Shown here piece after piece: positions 1 through 6,045 of a stretch of DNA of 6,045 bases. Position 1 is the stretch's first letter. Each line of letters begins with the position of its first letter. The notes under the pieces are model-generated. The model was not told the DNA's origin. It saw only the letters and a program-made list of their open reading frames with translations, and did no database searches. A program made the translations under genes and the position numbers. Source of the DNA: a virus. Location of the stretch: positions 1-6,045 of IMG/VR virus record IMGVR_UViG_3300020029_000274; one strand, 5' to 3'.

Positions 1-121
1 CATTAACCTTATGGCACTTGATTGGTTTCTTGAAGATACTCCCGCCTACGTTTCTCGCGGTCAGCGTATTCTTTCTGTTCTCGACGGTTCTGGCTCTGTT
101 GATGTTCTTCCTGGTCGTCCA
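1..121. repeat. Terminal direct repeat, copy 1 (identical to 5925..6045); circularisation overlap of a 5,924-nt circular genome
   Basis: Base-by-base reading shows that 1..121 (cattaaccttatggcacttgattgg...cttcctggtcgtcca) recurs without mismatch at 5925..6045, an offset of 5,924. The repeat starts 2 nt after the capsid stop codon and runs into the 5' part of the next ORF. That is the pattern of a circular contig written linearly, not of a biological terminal repeat. Confidence 0.9.
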
Positions 122-307
122 GATGTGGTAGTCGAACCTTCTGATTTTGATAAGGGTGAGAAGTTCAACCCCGAAATCGATTTCGATCCTAATTCGTTCT
201 CTCGTATGGATAAGTTCGATGGTCTCGAGGTTGGTCAGGAACTTATTGATTCAGAGATTGATAGATCGAGGGCTACCCCAAAGCCTTCTGATCCTAAAGA
301 AAAATAG
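11..307 (+). CDS. Small acidic protein (98 aa); possible internal scaffolding protein (VP3-like), function unproven
   Basis: ATG..TAG ORF with the same T-rich third-position codon usage as the hallmark genes (ggt tct ggc tct gtt gat gtt ctt cct ggt cgt). On the circle it starts 12 nt after the capsid stop. My hand count gives about 22 D/E versus 12 K/R, so it is strongly acidic, as microvirus scaffolding proteins are. I recognise no specific family motif. Confidence 0.75.
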   Translation: MALDWFLEDTPAYVSRGQRILSVLDGSGSVDVLPGRPDVVVEPSDFDKGEKFNPEIDFDPNSFSRMDKFDGLEVGQELIDSEIDRSRATPKPSDPKEK

Positions 308-337
308 TACATCCTTTACTTGACGATATATGCTACG

Positions 338-415
338 TGCGCGGACCCCTTCGGAAAGAGTCCGTGAATTGCCGAAGGTTATTGGTAACGACTGCCGGAG
401 AGGCCGCGCATTTTT
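338..415 (+). promoter_or_regulatory. GC-rich nested stem structure followed by a T5 run (candidate terminator or ssDNA origin/structural element)
   Basis: The outer helix pairs tgcgcgg (338..344) with ccgcgca (404..410), 7 bp. The nested inner helix pairs ccttcgg (348..354) with ccgaagg (372..378), 7 bp. An alternative, mutually exclusive helix pairs cggac (342..346) with gtccg (360..364). ttttt (411..415) follows immediately. The segment 331..410 is about 60% G+C by hand count, in an otherwise T-rich genome. Confidence 0.5.
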
Positions 416-440
416 CTATCGTTCTTTAAATTTTATTATC

Positions 441-632
441 ATGTCTGATACTAAACAACCGTTCTACAAGTCTAAAGCGTTTTGGACGCTTGTTTCTTCC
501 ATAGTTGCCGCTTTAGCTGCCTTTTTTCTTGCTTCGTGTTCTGCTCAGGCTAAGATGCATCGTAGTGGCGTTCATATCGATACCGTGCGTGTCGATTATA
601 TCATTCGTTCTAACAATTTAACCCATATGTAG
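441..632 (+). CDS. Predicted small lipoprotein (63-aa precursor, ~31-aa mature lipopeptide), unknown function
   Basis: From the ATG at 441 the product is MSDTKQPFYKSKAFWTLVSSIVAALAAFFLASC/SAQAKMHRSGVHIDTVRVDYIIRSNNLTHM. It has a Lys-containing n-region, a ~17-aa hydrophobic core and an L-A-S-C lipobox (nt 528..539, Cys33). The stop (630..632) lies 1 nt before the VP2 ATG (634). T-rich third-position bias resumes after 441, while 330..440 is GC-rich and structured. A signal peptide must be N-terminal, so 441 is preferred to the ATG at 330 used in the track. Confidence 0.7.
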   Translation: MSDTKQPFYKSKAFWTLVSSIVAALAAFFLASCSAQAKMHRSGVHIDTVRVDYIIRSNNLTHM

Positions 633-633
633 T

Positions 634-2010
634 ATGCCCGCTCCTGTTGCTGCCGCCGGTACCGCGGCTTCCTTTGGCCGTGCTCTCGGTGAATCTGTCG
701 CCTCCACTGGAGCCAACGGTCTCGTCAATGGCTTTTTGGGCCAGCTTTTTGGTGGCATGAACGCTCGTCGCCAGTGGCGTTTTCAGCAAAAACAGATGAA
801 GCTTCAACAGCAGTACGCGTTGGAGCAGATGCAAAAGCAATCTGAGCTTTCCTACGCTAATTGGCAAAGGCAGTTTGATTACGAGAATGCTTACAATGAT
901 CCTTCGAAGGTTTTCGATCGTTATTTGAAGGCAGGTGTTACCCCCGCTGCTGTGCTCGGCTCTTCTGGCGTTGGCGTAAATGCTACTATGTCAGGCGGCT
1001 CTGCGGGTATGCCCTACGCTTCCGGCCCTTCCGCCAGTGTTCCCCTTAGCCCCGGTTCTTTTGCCCCTGGAGATCCAACTGCTATTGCGCAGAATATGGT
1101 TGCGCAATCTACGGTTGATCGTAATTCTGCTGCTGCTAATCGTGATAATGCCGAAGCTAAGTCGATTACGGATCAGAATGTCGGCAATCAACTATACACT
1201 CTTATGGCCGAGACTCGCGTAGCTTTAGATCAGGAGATCGCTAAGCATAATTTAGCCGCCGCGGACGTTCTCAAGGTACAAGAGAGTATTGAAAAAAATG
1301 CGCTTTTTATTTCTGACGCTACTCTGTTGAGCTCTATTGATGAAAAAAAGAATCAAGCCGCTCTTGTTTCTGGAGAGGTTCGTCGTCTAAACATAGAGAA
1401 TGAGCACTTAGGTGCTGTCATGTCGGCGCAAGCTTTTATGATGAACACTCAGGCAGCTCTTAATCAGGTGCTTGGAGAGCAAGCTCGTGAGGTTATAGAG
1501 TCTTTGCGTCTAAACAATCTCGATACTGCTAATGAGCTTGTGCGCAATTGGGATAAACGCTTCGATGTTGATATCCCGAATCCTCAGTATTCGGAAAATC
1601 TTAGAAGCAATAATCCTATCGTTCGCGCAAATCCCGGCCCTCCGTCTTTCAAAGTTTCGATGTCTCTTAAGGATTTTTACGATAAGACTATTGTAAATGA
1701 AGCGAACGCTTCTGATTTTCTCCCTGAGCAGGCTCGCGTCGCTCTTCGTAATGCAAAGCTTGATCCGTATGTTGAAATTTCGAAGGCTCTCGTTGGTGCG
1801 GCCGCTAGTGTCGCTGGTGCAGGTATAATTCGTGGCGGCGTGTCGCGTGCGGCCACCTCTATTTCTGCCGGTGGATCTTCCAGCAACCTCGCAGGTTCTT
1901 CGATGACAACTCGTTATGATTCGAAAGGGCGCGTTGTTGGTTACGCGACAACAGAAATGAATCGTAGCGGTCATTCGAGTACATATAACAATACTCGTAG
2001 GTCTTGGTAA
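634..2010 (+). CDS. VP2: DNA pilot / minor capsid protein (VP2, phiX174 H analogue), 458 aa
   Basis: The N-terminus is Gly/Ala-rich and hydrophobic (MPAPVAAAGTAASFGRALGESVASTGANGLVNGFLGQLFGG). It is followed by a Q-rich segment and the block NWQRQFDYENAYNDPSKVFDRYLKAGVTPAAVLG (motif core nt 892..960). That block matches the conserved '...YN.P..Q..R...AG.NP' block I recall from microvirus VP2 proteins. The middle is long and helical or coiled-coil-like, and the C-terminus is Gly/Ala/Ser-rich (nt 1786..1884). Size and position, between the capsid and Rep genes, fit VP2. Confidence 0.85.
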   Translation: MPAPVAAAGTAASFGRALGESVASTGANGLVNGFLGQLFGGMNARRQWRFQQKQMKLQQQYALEQMQKQSELSYANWQRQFDYENAYNDPSKVFDRYLKAGVTPAAVLGSSGVGVNATMSGGSAGMPYASGPSASVPLSPGSFAPGDPTAIAQNMVAQSTVDRNSAAANRDNAEAKSITDQNVGNQLYTLMAETRVALDQEIAKHNLAAADVLKVQESIEKNALFISDATLLSSIDEKKNQAALVSGEVRRLNIENEHLGAVMSAQAFMMNTQAALNQVLGEQAREVIESLRLNNLDTANELVRNWDKRFDVDIPNPQYSENLRSNNPIVRANPGPPSFKVSMSLKDFYDKTIVNEANASDFLPEQARVALRNAKLDPYVEISKALVGAAASVAGAGIIRGGVSRAATSISAGGSSSNLAGSSMTTRYDSKGRVVGYATTEMNRSGHSSTYNNTRRSW

Positions 2011-2037
2011 AATTGTTATTTTTTTTTCTCTGTTTTT

Positions 2038-2068
2038 TTTGGATTTTCGATTTTTTGTTGTATATTTG
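2038..2068 (+). promoter_or_regulatory. Candidate Bacteroides-type promoter (-33 TTTG / -7 TAnnTTTG)
   Basis: TTTG at 2038..2041, a 19-nt spacer, then TATATTTG at 2061..2068, an exact match to TAnnTTTG. This sits in an 84-nt T-rich intergenic gap, 27 nt upstream of the ATG at 2095. Confidence 0.5.
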
Positions 2069-2094
2069 TATTGCAAACCAATAACCATATTACC

Positions 2095-2415
2095 ATGAGC
2101 ATTTTAAGTAAAGATTCTAGATTTGATGATCTGCAGATTGATTCTGTCGAGTACATGTTTATTGAATGGCTTATTCGTCGAGGGATTTATACTGCATATA
2201 AGTCGAATTACGAGCGTGCGTTTTCTCTTCGCACCGGCTTTCGTGAACGTTTGCGTGGCCATATTCGACGTACTCTTCGCTATCCCGATTATAGTCCAGG
2301 CGATCTCATCTCTTCTGCCTTCCTATTTGCTTCGACGCCCGAGGGTTTTAAATTTTGGAATAAGCACTCCACTGCTTGGAAACGTTTTTGTTCTAACTTT
2401 CAGTTGAAATTTTAA
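2095..2415 (+). CDS. Hypothetical protein (106 aa), lineage-specific accessory ORF
   Basis: ATG..TAA ORF with strong T3 codon bias (gat tct aga ttt gat gat ... cgt ttt tgt tct aac ttt). It is basic and aromatic-rich, with a C-terminal segment SAFLFASTPEGFKFWNKHSTAWKRF. I prefer the ATG at 2095 to the TTG at 2071 used in the track, because 2071 would fall immediately after the promoter-like -7 box. No family is recognised with certainty. Confidence 0.72.
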   Translation: MSILSKDSRFDDLQIDSVEYMFIEWLIRRGIYTAYKSNYERAFSLRTGFRERLRGHIRRTLRYPDYSPGDLISSAFLFASTPEGFKFWNKHSTAWKRFCSNFQLKF

Positions 2416-2426
2416 ATTGTATTATT

Positions 2427-2750
2427 ATGTCACAGGTTCACATTGTTATTCGTCGGATTAATCCGGCTTTGAAAATTGATCTCGCCCAGGTAGGTCGCCT
2501 CGAGGAAGGTCGATTTGAATCAGTTCCCTTGGAGGTTCTTGCAAATTCCGCTATTTCGAGTATCTTAAAGCGTTCTGAAATTAGCGATTCGCTTTATGTT
2601 GATCATTCAAGTATACCTAAACTTATTGCTATTTGTGAGGGTTTTCCTGATTTTCGTGTCGAGTTTTTCGACAATACACTTGTCCTTATGTTTTACCGTG
2701 ATCTAGATCGTAATGAAAGCGCGACGAAAGAAGAAGGGGAAGGGCACTAG
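2427..2750 (+). CDS. Hypothetical protein (107 aa) with an acidic C-terminal tail, lineage-specific accessory ORF
   Basis: ATG..TAG ORF starting 11 nt after the previous stop, in the same orientation and with the same codon style. No transmembrane segment or signal peptide is visible. It ends in ...DLDRNESATKEEGEGH. No family is recognised. Confidence 0.72.
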   Translation: MSQVHIVIRRINPALKIDLAQVGRLEEGRFESVPLEVLANSAISSILKRSEISDSLYVDHSSIPKLIAICEGFPDFRVEFFDNTLVLMFYRDLDRNESATKEEGEGH

Positions 2751-2797
2751 AGTAGTGACCCGCCCGCTTGGTGGAAGAGTTCTTTAACTCGTAGTAT

Positions 2798-2820
2798 CTG
2801 TGGGAGGCCTCCTCTCACAG
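2798..2820 (+). promoter_or_regulatory. GC-rich stem-loop (10-bp stem including one G-T pair, 3-nt loop); candidate terminator or ssDNA origin element
   Basis: In ctgtgggagg-cct-cctctcacag, positions 2798..2807 pair with 2811..2820 (c-g, t-a, g-c, t-a, g-c, g-t, g-c, a-t, g-c, g-c) and the loop is 2808..2810. It lies 48 nt after the stop of the 107-aa ORF, inside a 98-152 nt non-coding gap. Confidence 0.6.
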
Positions 2821-2831
2821 GTACTTTTACC

Positions 2832-2840
2832 TGATATAAT
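2832..2840 (+). promoter_or_regulatory. TGATATAAT box (extended -10-like; also resembles the phiX174 origin nick-site core)
   Basis: TG-a-TATAAT at 2832..2840, 12 nt after the hairpin. No good TTGACA sits at the expected -35 position (2812..2817 is ctctca). The context cctgatataatttttt shares TGATAT..AAT with the phiX174 origin core CTTGATATTAATAAC, as I recall that sequence. The function is undetermined. Confidence 0.35.
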
Positions 2841-2902
2841 TTTTTATTGTGGATAATTTTGATTTTAGGCCTAGGTTTTCTCCTAACGTTGGCGGCCTTT
2901 CT

Positions 2903-3049
2903 ATGCGTTATTCTATTGGCGCTTATCGCGGTAGGAAGCGAGTTATTATCGCTTGGTTTGCTGATGAGTTGTCCGCGAGCGATTATCTTGTTCGTTGTCG
3001 TCGCACTAATCCTTATATTCGATTTGATTGCCTTAAAAGCCTTTTTTAA
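2903..3049 (+). CDS. Small basic protein (48 aa from ATG 2903; 66 aa if GTG 2849 is used), translationally coupled to Rep; possible DNA-binding/packaging protein
   Basis: The frame has pronounced T3 bias (cgt tat tct att ggc gct tat cgc ggt ... ctt gtt cgt tgt cgt cgc act aat cct tat att). The product MRYSIGAYRGRKRVIIAWFADELSASDYLVRCRRTNPYIRFDCLKSLF has about 10 K/R and 4 D/E. Its stop TAA (3047..3049) overlaps the Rep ATG (3049..3051) as TAATG. The start codon is uncertain. Confidence 0.55.
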   Translation: MRYSIGAYRGRKRVIIAWFADELSASDYLVRCRRTNPYIRFDCLKSLF

Positions 3050-4119
3050 TGCCCTGTTCTTCTCCCATATGGATACGAAATCGTCGTTATTTCGATAAGA
3101 AAAACCCTTGTCGTAACGGTTCTGACGTTGCCAGGTCGGCTTTAGCCCTTCGTCCCTGGGATATCGCGCGACAGTGGTTGATGGTCCCGTGTGGAAAATG
3201 CGAAGATTGCTTGCGTCGCCAGCGTAATGATTGGTTTGTGCGTTTAGAGCGTGAGCTTGCTCATTGTAAGGCTAGTAATCAGCAGGCTATTTTTATTACT
3301 ATAACTATCGCTCCAAAGTATTATAATGAGGCATTGTTAAATCCTTCTTTATTTATTCGCCGATTTAATGAGCGTCTTCGTCATAAGCTTGGCCATTCTT
3401 TTAAGCACGCCTTTTTCCAGGAATTTGGCACTCACCCGCAAACGGGAGCCGAGCCTCGATTGCATTTTCACGGTTTTCTTTTTGCTACGAATACTCTCTA
3501 TAATACTATTCGCTCTGCGGTTCGGGACCTTGGTTTTGTTTGGCTAGCGAAAGCTACCCACAAACGCGCTCGTTACTGCGTTAAGTATGTCACTAAACAA
3601 ATTCAGTTCAATCCCGAAGAAATTTCGGGTAAATATGTTACCGTAAATGGAACAGTTACACCTTTATCTTGCCTCCTCCAACATCGCCGTTATACGCGAA
3701 AATTCGTATCTGCTGGCGTTGGTGATTTTCTTGGCTATATGCCTCGTCCTTCTACCCGTACTTCGTCGTGGTCTTATTTTGATTTTAAAAAACGAATCAA
3801 TTATAACTACTCGATTCCTCGCTATTACCTTAAATATCTTAAGCCAGAAGACGAGGTTGTGCGTTCGATTACCGCTGCTGATACTTATGCACGTTTTAGC
3901 AAGTCTTCTTTGGTTAAGCATATTGTGTCTTTGTGCATTAGACGGTTCGCCCTCAATTCCTCCGTATCCCGTAGAGAGACGTATACGTGGGAGCAGAAAC
4001 AAATGATGCGCTTTTCCGCTTCTTCTCGTAGGATGCCCGATTTTGATCCTCCCGCTTGGCTAGATTTAGATATTCTTCAGTTTTGGAAGAATCATTATAA
4101 ACTTCAACTAAATATTTAA
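3049..4119 (+). CDS. VP4: Rolling-circle replication initiation protein (HUH endonuclease; VP4, phiX174 A analogue), 356 aa
   Basis: All microvirus Rep landmarks are present. The N-terminus is MPCSSPIWIRN. There is a VPCGKCEDC cysteine cluster (3190..3210). Motif I is FITITI (3292..3309). Motif II, the HUH motif, is LHFHGFLF (HFH at 3463..3471). Motif III is YCVKYVTK (3574..3597), with two catalytic-type tyrosines in the Y-x-x-K-Y-x-x-K arrangement seen in phiX174 protein A. Confidence 0.93.
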   Translation: MPCSSPIWIRNRRYFDKKNPCRNGSDVARSALALRPWDIARQWLMVPCGKCEDCLRRQRNDWFVRLERELAHCKASNQQAIFITITIAPKYYNEALLNPSLFIRRFNERLRHKLGHSFKHAFFQEFGTHPQTGAEPRLHFHGFLFATNTLYNTIRSAVRDLGFVWLAKATHKRARYCVKYVTKQIQFNPEEISGKYVTVNGTVTPLSCLLQHRRYTRKFVSAGVGDFLGYMPRPSTRTSSWSYFDFKKRINYNYSIPRYYLKYLKPEDEVVRSITAADTYARFSKSSLVKHIVSLCIRRFALNSSVSRRETYTWEQKQMMRFSASSRRMPDFDPPAWLDLDILQFWKNHYKLQLNI

Positions 4120-4122
4120 TTT

Positions 4123-5922
4123 ATGGGAAAACAACCCTTTATTTCTCACGCTGTAAATGGTTACTCTCGGTACGATGTTCCCGAGAGTAAGGCCTTTACG
4201 TGTACACCGGGTATTTTGTATCCGGTGCGAATCGATTTTATTAATGCTCGCGACCGCGTATCTATCGAGCAAGGCGTTGATATTCGCAGTAACCCTCTTG
4301 CTGTTCCGACTTTCAATCCCTATACCATTCGACTTCATCGTTTTTGGGTGCCACTGCAGTTGTATCACCCTGAGTTGAGGACCAATAGTAGCAAGTTCGA
4401 TATGAATGATTTGAGCTTGAATTGGATTACAGCCCTTGTTGGCACTTCGGGTACCACTACTCCTAATTCTGCCCTTGGTGCTTCGCGTGCTTATCCTAAT
4501 TCGCTTATGGCTTGGCTTCGTGTTTCCAATAAGACGTCGTTGCAACTTTCTAATCAGCCTCCGTATACCGCTAGTCTCCCCTCTGGTGCTTCGGTCAATC
4601 AGTGGGCAAATGCTGATACGTATTTAGCTTATTGGGACATTGTTCGAAACTATTATAGTTACTCGCAGTGGGGCTTATTTTCGATTGCGTGGCCCGCTTC
4701 CTGGTCGATTCTGGATAACTCCTTTTCTTATGCTACCGAAGCTACGTTTTTTAAGCAGGAGTATTCTAACCTAGAATTTCTTGACGCTTATTTTGAGAGT
4801 CAGTTTTACCCGTCGGCCGTTTCGAGTACAAATAATACTTTTAATAGGGGTAATTTGTTCTTCCAAATAATCAATTCTCAACTCCCGTCGGGCGGCGACC
4901 AAGATGGCTACCCTGTTTCTACCACACTTCCCAGTGGCGCCAATATCGTTGTCGGAAAAGGTCCCTCTGGTCAATTTTCTACCTCTGAAGGCACCGCCTC
5001 TGTTTCTGCTATTTCTGCCTTCTTGTTTGCGCATCCTATGGCTGTTGTACCCTCGAACCCTGATCGATTTAGCCGGCTTATTCCCGTAGGTTCTTCGTCT
5101 GCGGTCTCTATGACCGGCGTAAGCACTATTCCGCAGTTGGCCATTGCTTCTCGCCTTCAGGAATACAAAGACCTTCTCGGTGCTGGAGGCAGCCGTTATA
5201 GCGATTGGTTGGAAACGTTTTTTGCGTCGAAGATTGAACATGTTGACCGTCCGAAGCTCCTTTTTAGTGCTTCGCAGACCGTCAATGTGCAGATTGTTAT
5301 GAATCAAGCCGGCCAAAATAATTTTGCCAACCAGGGCGTTAATGGTCCTCTAGGTCAACAAGGTGGTGCCATTGCTTTCAATGATCGCCTTGGTCGTCGG
5401 CAGTCTTACTATTTCCGTGAACCTGGTTATTTAATCGATATGCTGAGTATTCGCCCTGTTTACTTTTGGAGCGGTATTACACCCGATTATCTGAATTATC
5501 AAGGCTCGGATTACTTCAATCCTATTTACAACGATATTGGTTATCAGGATGTTCCTGCCGCACGGCTTTTTAGTAATGCTGCGGGTTCGGATCTTGGACT
5601 TGCTGTTGCTTACGAGCCTTGTTTTAACGAGTTTCGTTCGTCTTATGATGAAGCATTAGGCTCGTTGTCGTCGTACCCCGCTCCTTCATTAGGCATCCCC
5701 AGGCCTATTTATTCGTATTGGGTGCAGCAGCGCTCGCTTGGTTTTTCGTATGTAGGCTCTGCCGGCGCTAATTATTATCCCGCACTTTTCGTGGATATGG
5801 CGCAGGTTAATGCTCCTTTTGCCTCTAATGTAGAGGATAATTTTTTTGTAAATATGTCTTATTCAGTCCAGAAGAAGAATTTGGTGAATAAAACCTTTGC
5901 TACTCGTTTGTCTAATCGTTAA
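4123..5922 (+). CDS. VP1: Major capsid protein (VP1, phiX174 F analogue), 599 aa
   Basis: The conserved Microviridae capsid blocks are readable. The N-terminal block is SRYDVPESKAFTCTPGILYPV...PLAVPTFNPYTIRLHRFWVPLQL (about nt 4162..4362). The central block is IPQLAIASRLQEYKDLLGAGGSRYSDWLETFFASKIEHVDRPKLLF (5128..5274; compare the LR.A..LQ.W.E...R.G.RY.E....FGV...D.R..RP pattern). Further blocks are FREPGYLIDMLSIRPVYFWSGI and DYFNPIYNDIGYQDV. It is the largest ORF and starts 3 nt after the Rep stop. Confidence 0.95.
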   Translation: MGKQPFISHAVNGYSRYDVPESKAFTCTPGILYPVRIDFINARDRVSIEQGVDIRSNPLAVPTFNPYTIRLHRFWVPLQLYHPELRTNSSKFDMNDLSLNWITALVGTSGTTTPNSALGASRAYPNSLMAWLRVSNKTSLQLSNQPPYTASLPSGASVNQWANADTYLAYWDIVRNYYSYSQWGLFSIAWPASWSILDNSFSYATEATFFKQEYSNLEFLDAYFESQFYPSAVSSTNNTFNRGNLFFQIINSQLPSGGDQDGYPVSTTLPSGANIVVGKGPSGQFSTSEGTASVSAISAFLFAHPMAVVPSNPDRFSRLIPVGSSSAVSMTGVSTIPQLAIASRLQEYKDLLGAGGSRYSDWLETFFASKIEHVDRPKLLFSASQTVNVQIVMNQAGQNNFANQGVNGPLGQQGGAIAFNDRLGRRQSYYFREPGYLIDMLSIRPVYFWSGITPDYLNYQGSDYFNPIYNDIGYQDVPAARLFSNAAGSDLGLAVAYEPCFNEFRSSYDEALGSLSSYPAPSLGIPRPIYSYWVQQRSLGFSYVGSAGANYYPALFVDMAQVNAPFASNVEDNFFVNMSYSVQKKNLVNKTFATRLSNR

Positions 5923-5924
5923 TA

Positions 5925-6045
5925 CATTAACCTTATGGCACTTGATTGGTTTCTTGAAGATACTCCCGCCTACGTTTCTCGCGGTCAGCGTATTCTTTCT
6001 GTTCTCGACGGTTCTGGCTCTGTTGATGTTCTTCCTGGTCGTCCA
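5925..6045. repeat. Terminal direct repeat, copy 2 (identical to 1..121)
   Basis: Exact 121-nt copy of the window start; see the feature at 1..121. Confidence 0.9.
5935..6045 (+). CDS. Duplicate 5' fragment (first 37 codons, runs off the window) of the 98-aa acidic protein gene, created by the circular overlap
   Basis: The ATG at 5935 corresponds to the ATG at 11 and the sequence is identical to 11..121. It is the same gene seen a second time, not an additional gene. Confidence 0.6.
   Translation, partial: MALDWFLEDTPAYVSRGQRILSVLDGSGSVDVLPGRP

Follow-up and report, generated by a model that had tools for sequence, protein, structure and literature searches.

Very small lipoproteins that act on the bacterial envelope have been described from bacteriocin plasmids, phages and bacterial chromosomes, and they provide the comparison for a 63-codon gene of a microvirus genome, IMG/VR record IMGVR_UViG_3300020029_000274, positions 1 to 6,045 (this whole stretch of 6,045 nucleotides (nt) is called the window). 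The gene, at positions 441–632, encodes a predicted lipoprotein precursor and lies directly upstream of the gene for the pilot protein VP2. It is not settled how microviruses outside the phiX174 group exit from their hosts, and they are among the commonest phages of the mammalian gut. A sequence-only reading of the window, which proposed a lysis, release or exclusion factor, stated that no lysis gene had been identified outside that group; this was too strong, as endolysin function in microviruses has been attributed, as a proposal, to M15 peptidases (PMC3394797, PMC9239249). No published description of this lipoprotein family in microviruses was found in the literature.

The colicin and bacteriocin release lipoproteins (pCloDF13 bacteriocin release protein (BRP), ColE1 Kil, ColA Cal; Lysis_col) have, like the family described here, precursors of ~45–65 amino acids (aa) and mature peptides of ~27–35 aa, and both are encoded by very small replicons whose product must exit the cell without a muralytic enzyme. 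In both, the signal peptide is unusually constrained or functional; that of the pCloDF13 release protein was reportedly found by van der Wal, in 1994 and 1995 (cited in PMC5727409), to be stable and functional. The release proteins bring about quasi-lysis or release and depend on outer-membrane phospholipase A. However, there is no sequence similarity (no match to Pfam Lysis_col, NCBIfam or PDB), the hosts are Enterobacteriaceae rather than Bacteroidales, and the cargo here is a virion of ~25–30 nm that must get past the peptidoglycan.

A second group comprises T5 Llp and Cor of phi80, N15 and T1, which block FhuA; Cor is shared by unrelated FhuA-dependent phages. Proteins of this group shut off the receptor of their own phage and are made in lysogens or early in infection. 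Llp and Cor (phi80/N15/HK022/T1) resemble the present protein as small phage lipoproteins that are shared by unrelated phages with a common host component and occur in both temperate and virulent phages. Their mature forms, however, are about twice as long (~60–77 aa) with a folded domain, no Pfam, PHROG or PADLOC match rose above noise, and here the gene is a core gene that never co-occurs with the peptidase. The o-spanins (lambda Rz1) and unimolecular spanins (T1 gp11) are likewise small outer-membrane lipoproteins of phages, acting in the last step of lysis, but none of the eight window open reading frames (ORFs) scanned matched a hydrolase, endolysin, holin or i-spanin family, and the mature peptide has no Pro-rich stretch, periplasmic Cys or C-terminal transmembrane (TM) domain. 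With phiX174 E and other single-gene lysis (Sgl) proteins the lipoprotein shares a tiny phage without a muralytic enzyme, a small membrane-targeted product and a variable gene position. E, however, inhibits MraY as a non-lipidated, N-out TM protein and is encoded by an overprinted gene, whereas the lipoprotein gene is free-standing and encodes a lipobox; ORFx, a frame overprinted on the VP4/Rep gene at 3647–4006, is formally closer to E or K. The entericidins EcnA/B are also very small lipoproteins (mature ~25–30 aa), possibly amphipathic and helical, that affect envelope integrity, but they form chromosomal toxin/antidote pairs; here no antidote gene and no similarity were found.

A conserved gene for a probable lipoprotein

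Translation from ATG 441 to TAG 630–632 gives a 63-aa precursor, MSDTKQPFYKSKAFWTLVSSIVAALAAFFLASCSAQAKMHRSGVHIDTVRVDYIIRSNNLTHM, with the layout MSDTKQPFYKSK-AFWTLVSSIVAALAAFF-LASC-SAQAKMHRSGVHIDTVRVDYIIRSNNLTHM. The features of the gene, with the ratio of nonsynonymous to synonymous substitution rates (dN/dS) and AlphaFold2 (AF2) predictions where these support them, are:

441–632, + strand: lipoprotein precursor gene, 63 codons and TAG (ORF, homologues, dN/dS)
441–476, + strand: n-region MSDTKQPFYKSK (K5, K10, K12), with K12 nearly invariant and a KSKxFW motif common to lineages
477–527, + strand: hydrophobic core AFWTLVSSIVAALAAFF (cross-lineage alignment, AF2 helix, dN/dS 0.054)
528–539, + strand: lipobox L-A-S-C (L30-A31-S32-C33), with Cys33 (537–539) as the predicted acylation and cleavage site
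537–629, + strand: predicted mature lipopeptide of 31 aa, type A (CSAQAKMHRSGVHIDTVRVDYIIRSNNLTHM; invariant residues, dN/dS 0.061)
630–636, + strand: TAG, 1-nt spacer and VP2 ATG (634), from the sequence

The sequence-only reading had placed the L-A-S-C lipobox at 528–539, its cysteine at residue 33 and the gene end 1 nt before VP2, and all of this was confirmed. L-A-S-C fits the lipobox consensus [LVI][ASTVI][GAS]C. Residues A13–F29 include no charged residue, forming an uncharged hydrophobic region (h-region) before the lipobox, of a length within the 7–22 residues expected of lipoprotein precursors. A PROSITE PS51257-type rule, which calls for K or R within the first seven residues, Cys at positions 15–35 and six non-charged residues, ending in [LIVMFWSTAG]2-[LIVMFYSTAGCQ]-[AGS]-C, matched the 63-aa precursor. 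The lipobox pattern alone is weak evidence, because out-of-frame ORFs in T-rich sequence match by chance (spurious matches from such ORFs occurred in about half of the T-rich genomes scanned); this lipobox stands above chance because it is conserved.

Homologues formed 396 protein clusters in a single-sequence search and 822 in a profile search, with 71 representatives at the 50%-identity level among 1.84 billion proteins, nearly all of them short. A strict lipobox is present in 233 of 248 family members (LASC in 78, LSSC in 67, and LTSC, MSSC and TTSC in 12 each). The other 15 are mostly near-variants (LESC, CTSC, FPSC) and include five sequences frameshifted or truncated past the signal peptide, one that does not belong to the family (P0244) and one C-to-S change. 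Across 74 distinct nucleotide versions of the gene from the window's clade, synonymous codons vary freely and near saturation, and residues 7–59 are almost invariant. The dN/dS of these sequences is 0.069 overall, 0.054 for the h-region and lipobox and 0.061 for the mature part, and only the last four residues are free to vary. F14, W15, L17, A24 and F29 are invariant in a 14-sequence cross-lineage alignment, as are G43, H45, D47, T48, V49, V51 and D52 of the mature part among 36 sequences. Positions 441–632 therefore encode a genuine protein, which is under strong purifying selection and shows all the sequence features of a bacterial lipoprotein precursor. The homologues in nr carry an automatic 'MAG TPA: lipoprotein [Microviridae sp.]' label (P0009, P0176) or are otherwise labelled 'hypothetical protein'.

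The product is very probably a genuine signal peptidase II (SPase II) substrate, and the earlier proposal of an SPase II-type precursor leaving a lipopeptide of ~31 aa is well supported by the conservation of the predicted signal and cleavage site. The type-A mature peptide has four K/R, two D/E and three H residues, lacks Pro, and contains no Cys besides the predicted lipid-modified one. It has no acidic residues directly after this Cys; surface export in Bacteroidota is unlikely because there is no such acidic stretch. Neither the protein nor the family profile matched anything above noise in sequence searches of Pfam, PHROGs, NCBIfam, PADLOC and PDB; the noise included a sub-threshold NCBIfam alignment (E = 0.07) of residues 17–41 with profile positions 3–27 of the YgdI/YgdR lipoprotein model.

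With a 36-sequence alignment, AF2 predicted one long helix with a mean predicted local distance difference test score (pLDDT) of 70, confident for the TM segment only (helix, block-mean pLDDT of 87–89 over residues 11–30), and weakly predicted an amphipathic helix at precursor residues 48–61. Prediction of the mature peptide alone, one of the checks suggested beforehand, gave a weak helix (its residues 16–29, pLDDT 72) and left the structure unsettled. A β-hairpin in this peptide found no support, as AF2 gives a helix.

An upstream ATG at 330, which would give a 100-aa form, was rejected as the start. The 37-codon extension is missing in about half of the relatives, is read in another frame in some (P0091, P0092, P0094) and is lacking in distant homologues. 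Start 441 is preferred because the extension is missing or frameshifted in many relatives and coincides with a conserved hairpin; the false extension is a product of this hairpin.

Lineages, hosts and modular composition

The lipoprotein is present in 95 of the 108 loci that were fetched first, and a family hidden Markov model (HMM) matches 92 of the first 95 loci fetched, the misses being phiHBP1 and two contigs cut at the gene. Clade loci without the gene are cut contigs (L019 begins within VP2, and L077 was fetched only in part); true absence was considered for L019, L077 and L111 and rejected, as the contigs are cut there. The lipoprotein is a core gene of the window's microvirus clade, present in every complete genome, with core status tested in lineages i and ii; scans of IMG/VR for relatives of lineages iii to v returned little or nothing. 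The survey of relatives for a lipobox ORF that the sequence-only reading had called for found the gene throughout the complete clade genomes and, with a dN/dS of ~0.07, not evolving neutrally.

Within the clade the lipoprotein is the most conserved protein, with a median identity to the window of 89%, compared with 86% for VP4, 80% or lower for VP2 and 71% for VP1. At least five other deep lineages (at least six in total) have it too, at 49–71% identity, far above the identity of capsid or Rep across lineages; VP1 of those lineages is 17–25% identical to that of the window and to each other's. Kirchberger et al. use at least 30% VP1 identity as the family criterion and report that families rarely if ever exchange genes, the peptidase excepted (PMC9239249). 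Because their VP1 identity is below this criterion, the carriers of the lipoprotein represent different families, and whichever its function, a protein of 49–71% identity that links groups with VP1 below 30% is a counter-example to rare gene exchange (PMC9239249).

The position of the gene depends on the lineage: upstream of VP2, between VP2 and Rep, or straight after VP1. In the window lineage, the abutment of the lipoprotein stop and the VP2 start may allow translational coupling, and the same layout (TAG, 1 nt, VP2 ATG) recurs in L005, L089 and L119. Co-expression with virion genes, suggested in the sequence-only reading, therefore fits the window lineage only, as elsewhere the gene follows VP1, lies between VP2 and Rep or stands on the attL side of a prophage.

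Alistipes (Bacteroidales) is the host in every case where one could be assigned to a carrier. When 185,579 species, each represented by a single genome, were scanned with the profile, there were three matches, all in Alistipes and including A. montrealensis kh20 (L124; prophage at ~131.4–136.3 kb of NZ_JAGYXY010000001). In an Alistipes sp. genome (L095), the homologue is the first gene of a 5.87-kb microvirus prophage, adjoining attL, with dif-like direct repeat flanks (ATAATGTAAATATTATTTCATTT):

9597–15510 of L095: Alistipes microvirus prophage with dif-like flanks, beside ZnuA and HTH_3 genes

A second, different microvirus has a similar neighbourhood (ZnuA, HTH_3, RelA/SpoT) on another metagenomic contig. 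Further Alistipes microvirus prophages are L097, L121–L123 and L124–L126, and similar ZnuA/HTH_3/RelA or formate-nitrite-transporter neighbourhoods are shared by unrelated microviruses. No integrase was found among the called genes of the Alistipes microvirus prophages. For the window clade itself we only infer an Alistipes host, because no prophage of that clade was found. The dif-like motif of the Alistipes prophage is absent from the window, and a scan of genome contigs with VP1 gave no confirmed match.

The family is modular. The signal peptide KSKxFWTLxxxIVAALxAFF is retained while the mature part is swapped for unrelated peptides of similar length, namely type B (...GDT..T.I.YEQ.G..K), type C (FRGQGDVEF.YQG) and type D (LTVRGAQVDSLDF). 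Such swaps occur even among phages with 72–73% identical capsids, and one capsid lineage includes type A (L002), type B (L108–110) and type D (L114). Conversely, the type-A mature part is found downstream of three or more unrelated signal peptides, in each case with the lipobox Cys (P0217, P0223, P0226, L125, L126). The Cys and lipobox are kept in all mature-domain types, and the mature peptide of short-form homologues is 27–35 aa. Because both signal and mature parts swap, the constant features are export and lipidation of a peptide of ~30 residues. In five loci of the window clade (L018, L072, L082, L092 and L048; capsid 69–92% identical), the N-terminus MNIKALLKSKKFWTL... resembles alleles of other lineages, which suggests allele exchange between lineages.

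About 30 of the 71 cluster representatives, like the A. montrealensis kh20 prophage, have a lipoprotein ORF that continues past the type-A domain without a stop codon. These long forms, of ~200 aa, run for ~130 more codons, S/T/P-rich and overlapping an ORF in another frame, and end just before Rep in the J-like tail also found in a 24-aa ORF of the window (2713–2787), RRGGRRGK.RPK..K.IPLGGSHL. They are either real fusions or an open frame together with a non-ATG start:

Long lipoprotein forms: L013 4688–5320; L116 1512–2114; L117 3262–3804; L124 7974–8582; P0180–P0222

Lysis, exclusion and other readings of function

The host cell envelope is the probable site of action of the peptide, in lysis or in blocking rival phages. 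These are the two leading readings, of which a lysis-related role is favoured tentatively and exclusion is possible with less confidence. In the favoured reading, Sec would insert the precursor, Lgt would diacylate it at Cys33 and LspA would cleave it, giving a mildly cationic lipopeptide of ~31 residues anchored on the periplasmic side of the envelope. In microviruses without a peptidoglycan hydrolase, this lipopeptide may bring about host lysis and virion release, either as the effector or as one component of the process. It would work in the manner of the colicin and bacteriocin release lipoproteins, as a small lipopeptide to whose action an unusually stable signal peptide contributes, with a conserved periplasmic or outer-membrane host component as target; in the window clade it may act together with the two-TM ORFx (3647–4006). 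A broader version, in which a ~30-residue lipopeptide is the lysis effector of several Alistipes microvirus families, replaces an endolysin (a 'lipoprotein Sgl') and is swapped horizontally between families as a signal-peptide/effector cassette, is more doubtful.

The distribution of the M15 peptidase is consistent with a role in lysis. Muralytic enzymes are absent from all carrier genomes. Among the first 108 loci, 95 have the lipoprotein, 11 the peptidase and none both. No credible lipobox ORF was found in the peptidase-bearing microviruses, and none of the 42 lipoprotein-positive GenBank records is among the ~35 microvirus records listed in peptidase searches. In peptidase lineages the peptidase fills the interval between VP2 and Rep, which is the place of the lipoprotein in several other lineages; the peptidase-bearing phiHBP1 is the only cultured Bacteroides microvirus (PMC13064476). 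The lysis-associated peptidase is 74% identical across families in which VP1 is 21% identical (PMC9239249), and the sharing of the lipoprotein across lineages matches this reported pattern. The signal peptide is constrained as strongly as the mature part, which, together with the size of the protein, recalls the bacteriocin release proteins.

Several points weigh against a role in lysis. The complementary distribution carries small statistical weight, because it contrasts only ~6 with 2–3 deep lineages, which were ascertained by carrying one of the two genes, so that 'neither' is unobservable. Release-type lipopeptides permeabilise membranes and not peptidoglycan, which a virion of ~25–30 nm must cross. 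No similarity was found to any lysis protein family in Pfam, PHROGs, NCBIfam, PADLOC or PDB. Several carriers are prophages in which the lipoprotein is the first gene beside attL, and the prophage edge next to attL is a typical site of lysogenic-conversion genes. The swapping of mature domains is more reminiscent of a specificity or arms-race module than of an effector with a conserved, essential target. Lastly, the lipoprotein is not the sole envelope-directed product, given ORFx and single-TM-domain ORFs after VP2, and since ORFx is also envelope-directed, the case for lysis by elimination is weakened.

ORFx encodes 119 aa in the +1 frame inside Rep, with two hydrophobic segments and a conserved PPYPVERRIRG tail. 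All 68 clade genomes that were scanned keep its frame open and retain an ATG, even where Rep is 50–63% identical, and the synonymous diversity of Rep falls from 0.46 to 0.17 exactly over codons 200–318 (Mann–Whitney p = 1e-28). ORFx matched no known family and, in an HMM search, is confined to one lineage. This pattern suggests that ORFx, which the sequence-only reading had overlooked, is probably a real overprinted gene for a membrane protein, comparable to E or K of phiX174, and the signal extends overprinted genes to microviruses outside Bullavirinae. As a rival candidate, it may be the lysis protein itself, or a partner of the lipoprotein.

Superinfection exclusion or lysogenic conversion is a possible reading, held with some doubt. 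Here the lipoprotein would mask or inactivate a receptor or a DNA-entry route in the infected or lysogenic cell, protecting the lysogen as well as progeny that would otherwise adsorb to debris. The dif-site prophages of Alistipes, with the gene at the attL edge, fit this, as does the existence of a separate lysis candidate in ORFx; in the window lineage the gene also abuts that of the VP2 pilot protein. Unrelated mature types B, C and D behind the same signal peptide, within one capsid lineage, fit diversifying or specificity selection, and one allele type common to highly divergent capsid lineages with a shared host genus parallels Cor. However, the gene is carried by all complete genomes of the window clade, which is large and abundant in viromes and in which no prophage was found, and type A evolves at a dN/dS of ~0.06 across lineages that have almost unrelated capsid and pilot proteins and would be expected to differ in receptor. 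Exclusion also gives no reason why the gene never occurs together with the peptidase, and no similarity to Llp, Cor or PADLOC models was found.

It is unlikely that the lipopeptide serves the outer-membrane step only, as a functional analogue of spanins or of cationic 'disruptin' peptides that disrupts the outer membrane last, after ORFx or small single-TM-domain proteins have made the primary lesion. The lipoprotein does coexist with a small membrane protein in the window clade as well as in lineages ii and iii, and a mildly cationic mature peptide with a weakly predicted amphipathic helix (48–61) would suit such a role. Against this, there is no i-spanin partner and no Rz1-like Pro-rich or Cys-containing sequence, ORFx is limited to one lineage whereas the lipoprotein is not, and the small TM-domain ORFs are candidates only. 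Moreover, the known single-gene lysis systems work without an outer-membrane factor.

Least probable is an uncleaved, non-lipidated signal-anchor that acts as a bitopic inner-membrane protein through its TM helix, as in phiX174 E, which functions through its TM domain: conservation of the h-region equals or exceeds that of the rest, and the h-region is retained when the C-terminal part is swapped, but the Cys and lipobox are kept in all mature types and behind three unrelated signal peptides, which an anchor-only model does not require, and the topology would be opposite to that of E.

For either of the two leading readings, a core exported lipopeptide is a concrete 190-nt candidate, with one carrier prophage in a named strain, Alistipes montrealensis kh20. 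Should the lipopeptide lyse cells, it would point to a new vulnerable envelope target in Bacteroidales; should it exclude phages, it would be the first microvirus superinfection-exclusion factor outside phiX174 and a handle on the receptor.

Genome map and minor features

The window is a complete circular microvirus genome of 5924 nt, with bases 1–121 recurring at 5925–6045 of its 6045 nt, and all genes are carried on the + strand. Relatives come from faeces of pig, rodent, lemur, tortoise and other animals. Contigs of 12 kb in the window clade are head-to-tail dimers, and their interpretation as prophages was rejected accordingly. Besides the lipoprotein gene, the map comprises:

11–307, + strand: ORF98
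337–417, + strand: long GC-rich hairpin (337–411) followed by TTTTTC, directly 5' of the lipoprotein gene (fold, pairing)
634–2010, + strand: VP2 pilot protein
2095–2415, + strand: ORF106
2427–2750, + strand: ORF107
2849–3049, + strand: ORF66
3049–4119, + strand: VP4/Rep
3647–4006, + strand: ORFx, 119 aa, two hydrophobic segments, probably overprinted inside VP4/Rep
4123–5922, + strand: VP1 capsid

The upstream hairpin has a folding energy of −39.8 kcal/mol (z = −2.4). Its outer stem pairs in all 32 relatives counted, with a G-C to A-T change at 344/404 and several pair types at 353/396; seven genomes with an extra insert of ~100 nt were left out of this count, as they spoiled the RNAalifold consensus. 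The hairpin could be a terminator, a structure associated with single-stranded DNA or the replication origin (ori), or both, and a search of Rfam with the window gave no match. Within the intergenic stretch 316–417, a conserved motif, TTACTTGACGATATATGCTACG, lies 5' of the hairpin; presumably it resembles the phiX174 ori core, CAACTTGATATTAATAAC. The extra insert of ~100 nt, between the hairpin and the lipoprotein start (125 nt upstream of the lipoprotein ATG), is present in L026, L036, L057, L059, L061, L064, L073 and L075, and carries a GC-rich hairpin of its own (GCGGTTCGGAGAACCGC). A further hairpin (CTGTGGGAGGCCTCCTCTCACAG) and a terminator-like site at 2818–2833 are found in the intergenic stretch 2751–2848, 3' of ORF107.

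A hydrophobic ORF with a TTG start at 2847–3098 was dropped, as it is not conserved between the window and L019 and ORF66, in another frame, is. A generic scan for hydrophobic alternative-frame ORFs was likewise set aside as evidence, because T-rich frames yield them everywhere. Small ORFs of 36–50 aa are present in several other lineages, lipoprotein-bearing and peptidase-bearing alike:

Small ORFs: L004 3605–3712; L006 3543–3695; L109 5356–5496; L106 3245–3367; L104 5522–5644; L105 5615–5725

An N-terminal TM segment is present in four of them (L004, L006, L109 and L106), of which all but the one in L109 lie just after VP2; in the lipoprotein-bearing L004 and L006 they end in ...LDRH. These small ORFs are possible holin-like or Sgl-like genes. 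A 24-aa ORF, MKARRKKKGKGTRVVTRPLGGRVL, at 2713–2787 (+ strand) of the window overlaps the end of ORF107 and is shorter than the ORFs that standard lists include. Its product, which we take to resemble the basic DNA-packaging peptide J of phiX174, has its motif in 84 of 124 loci scanned (including L001, L005, L008 and L089), with an ATG of its own in many relatives.

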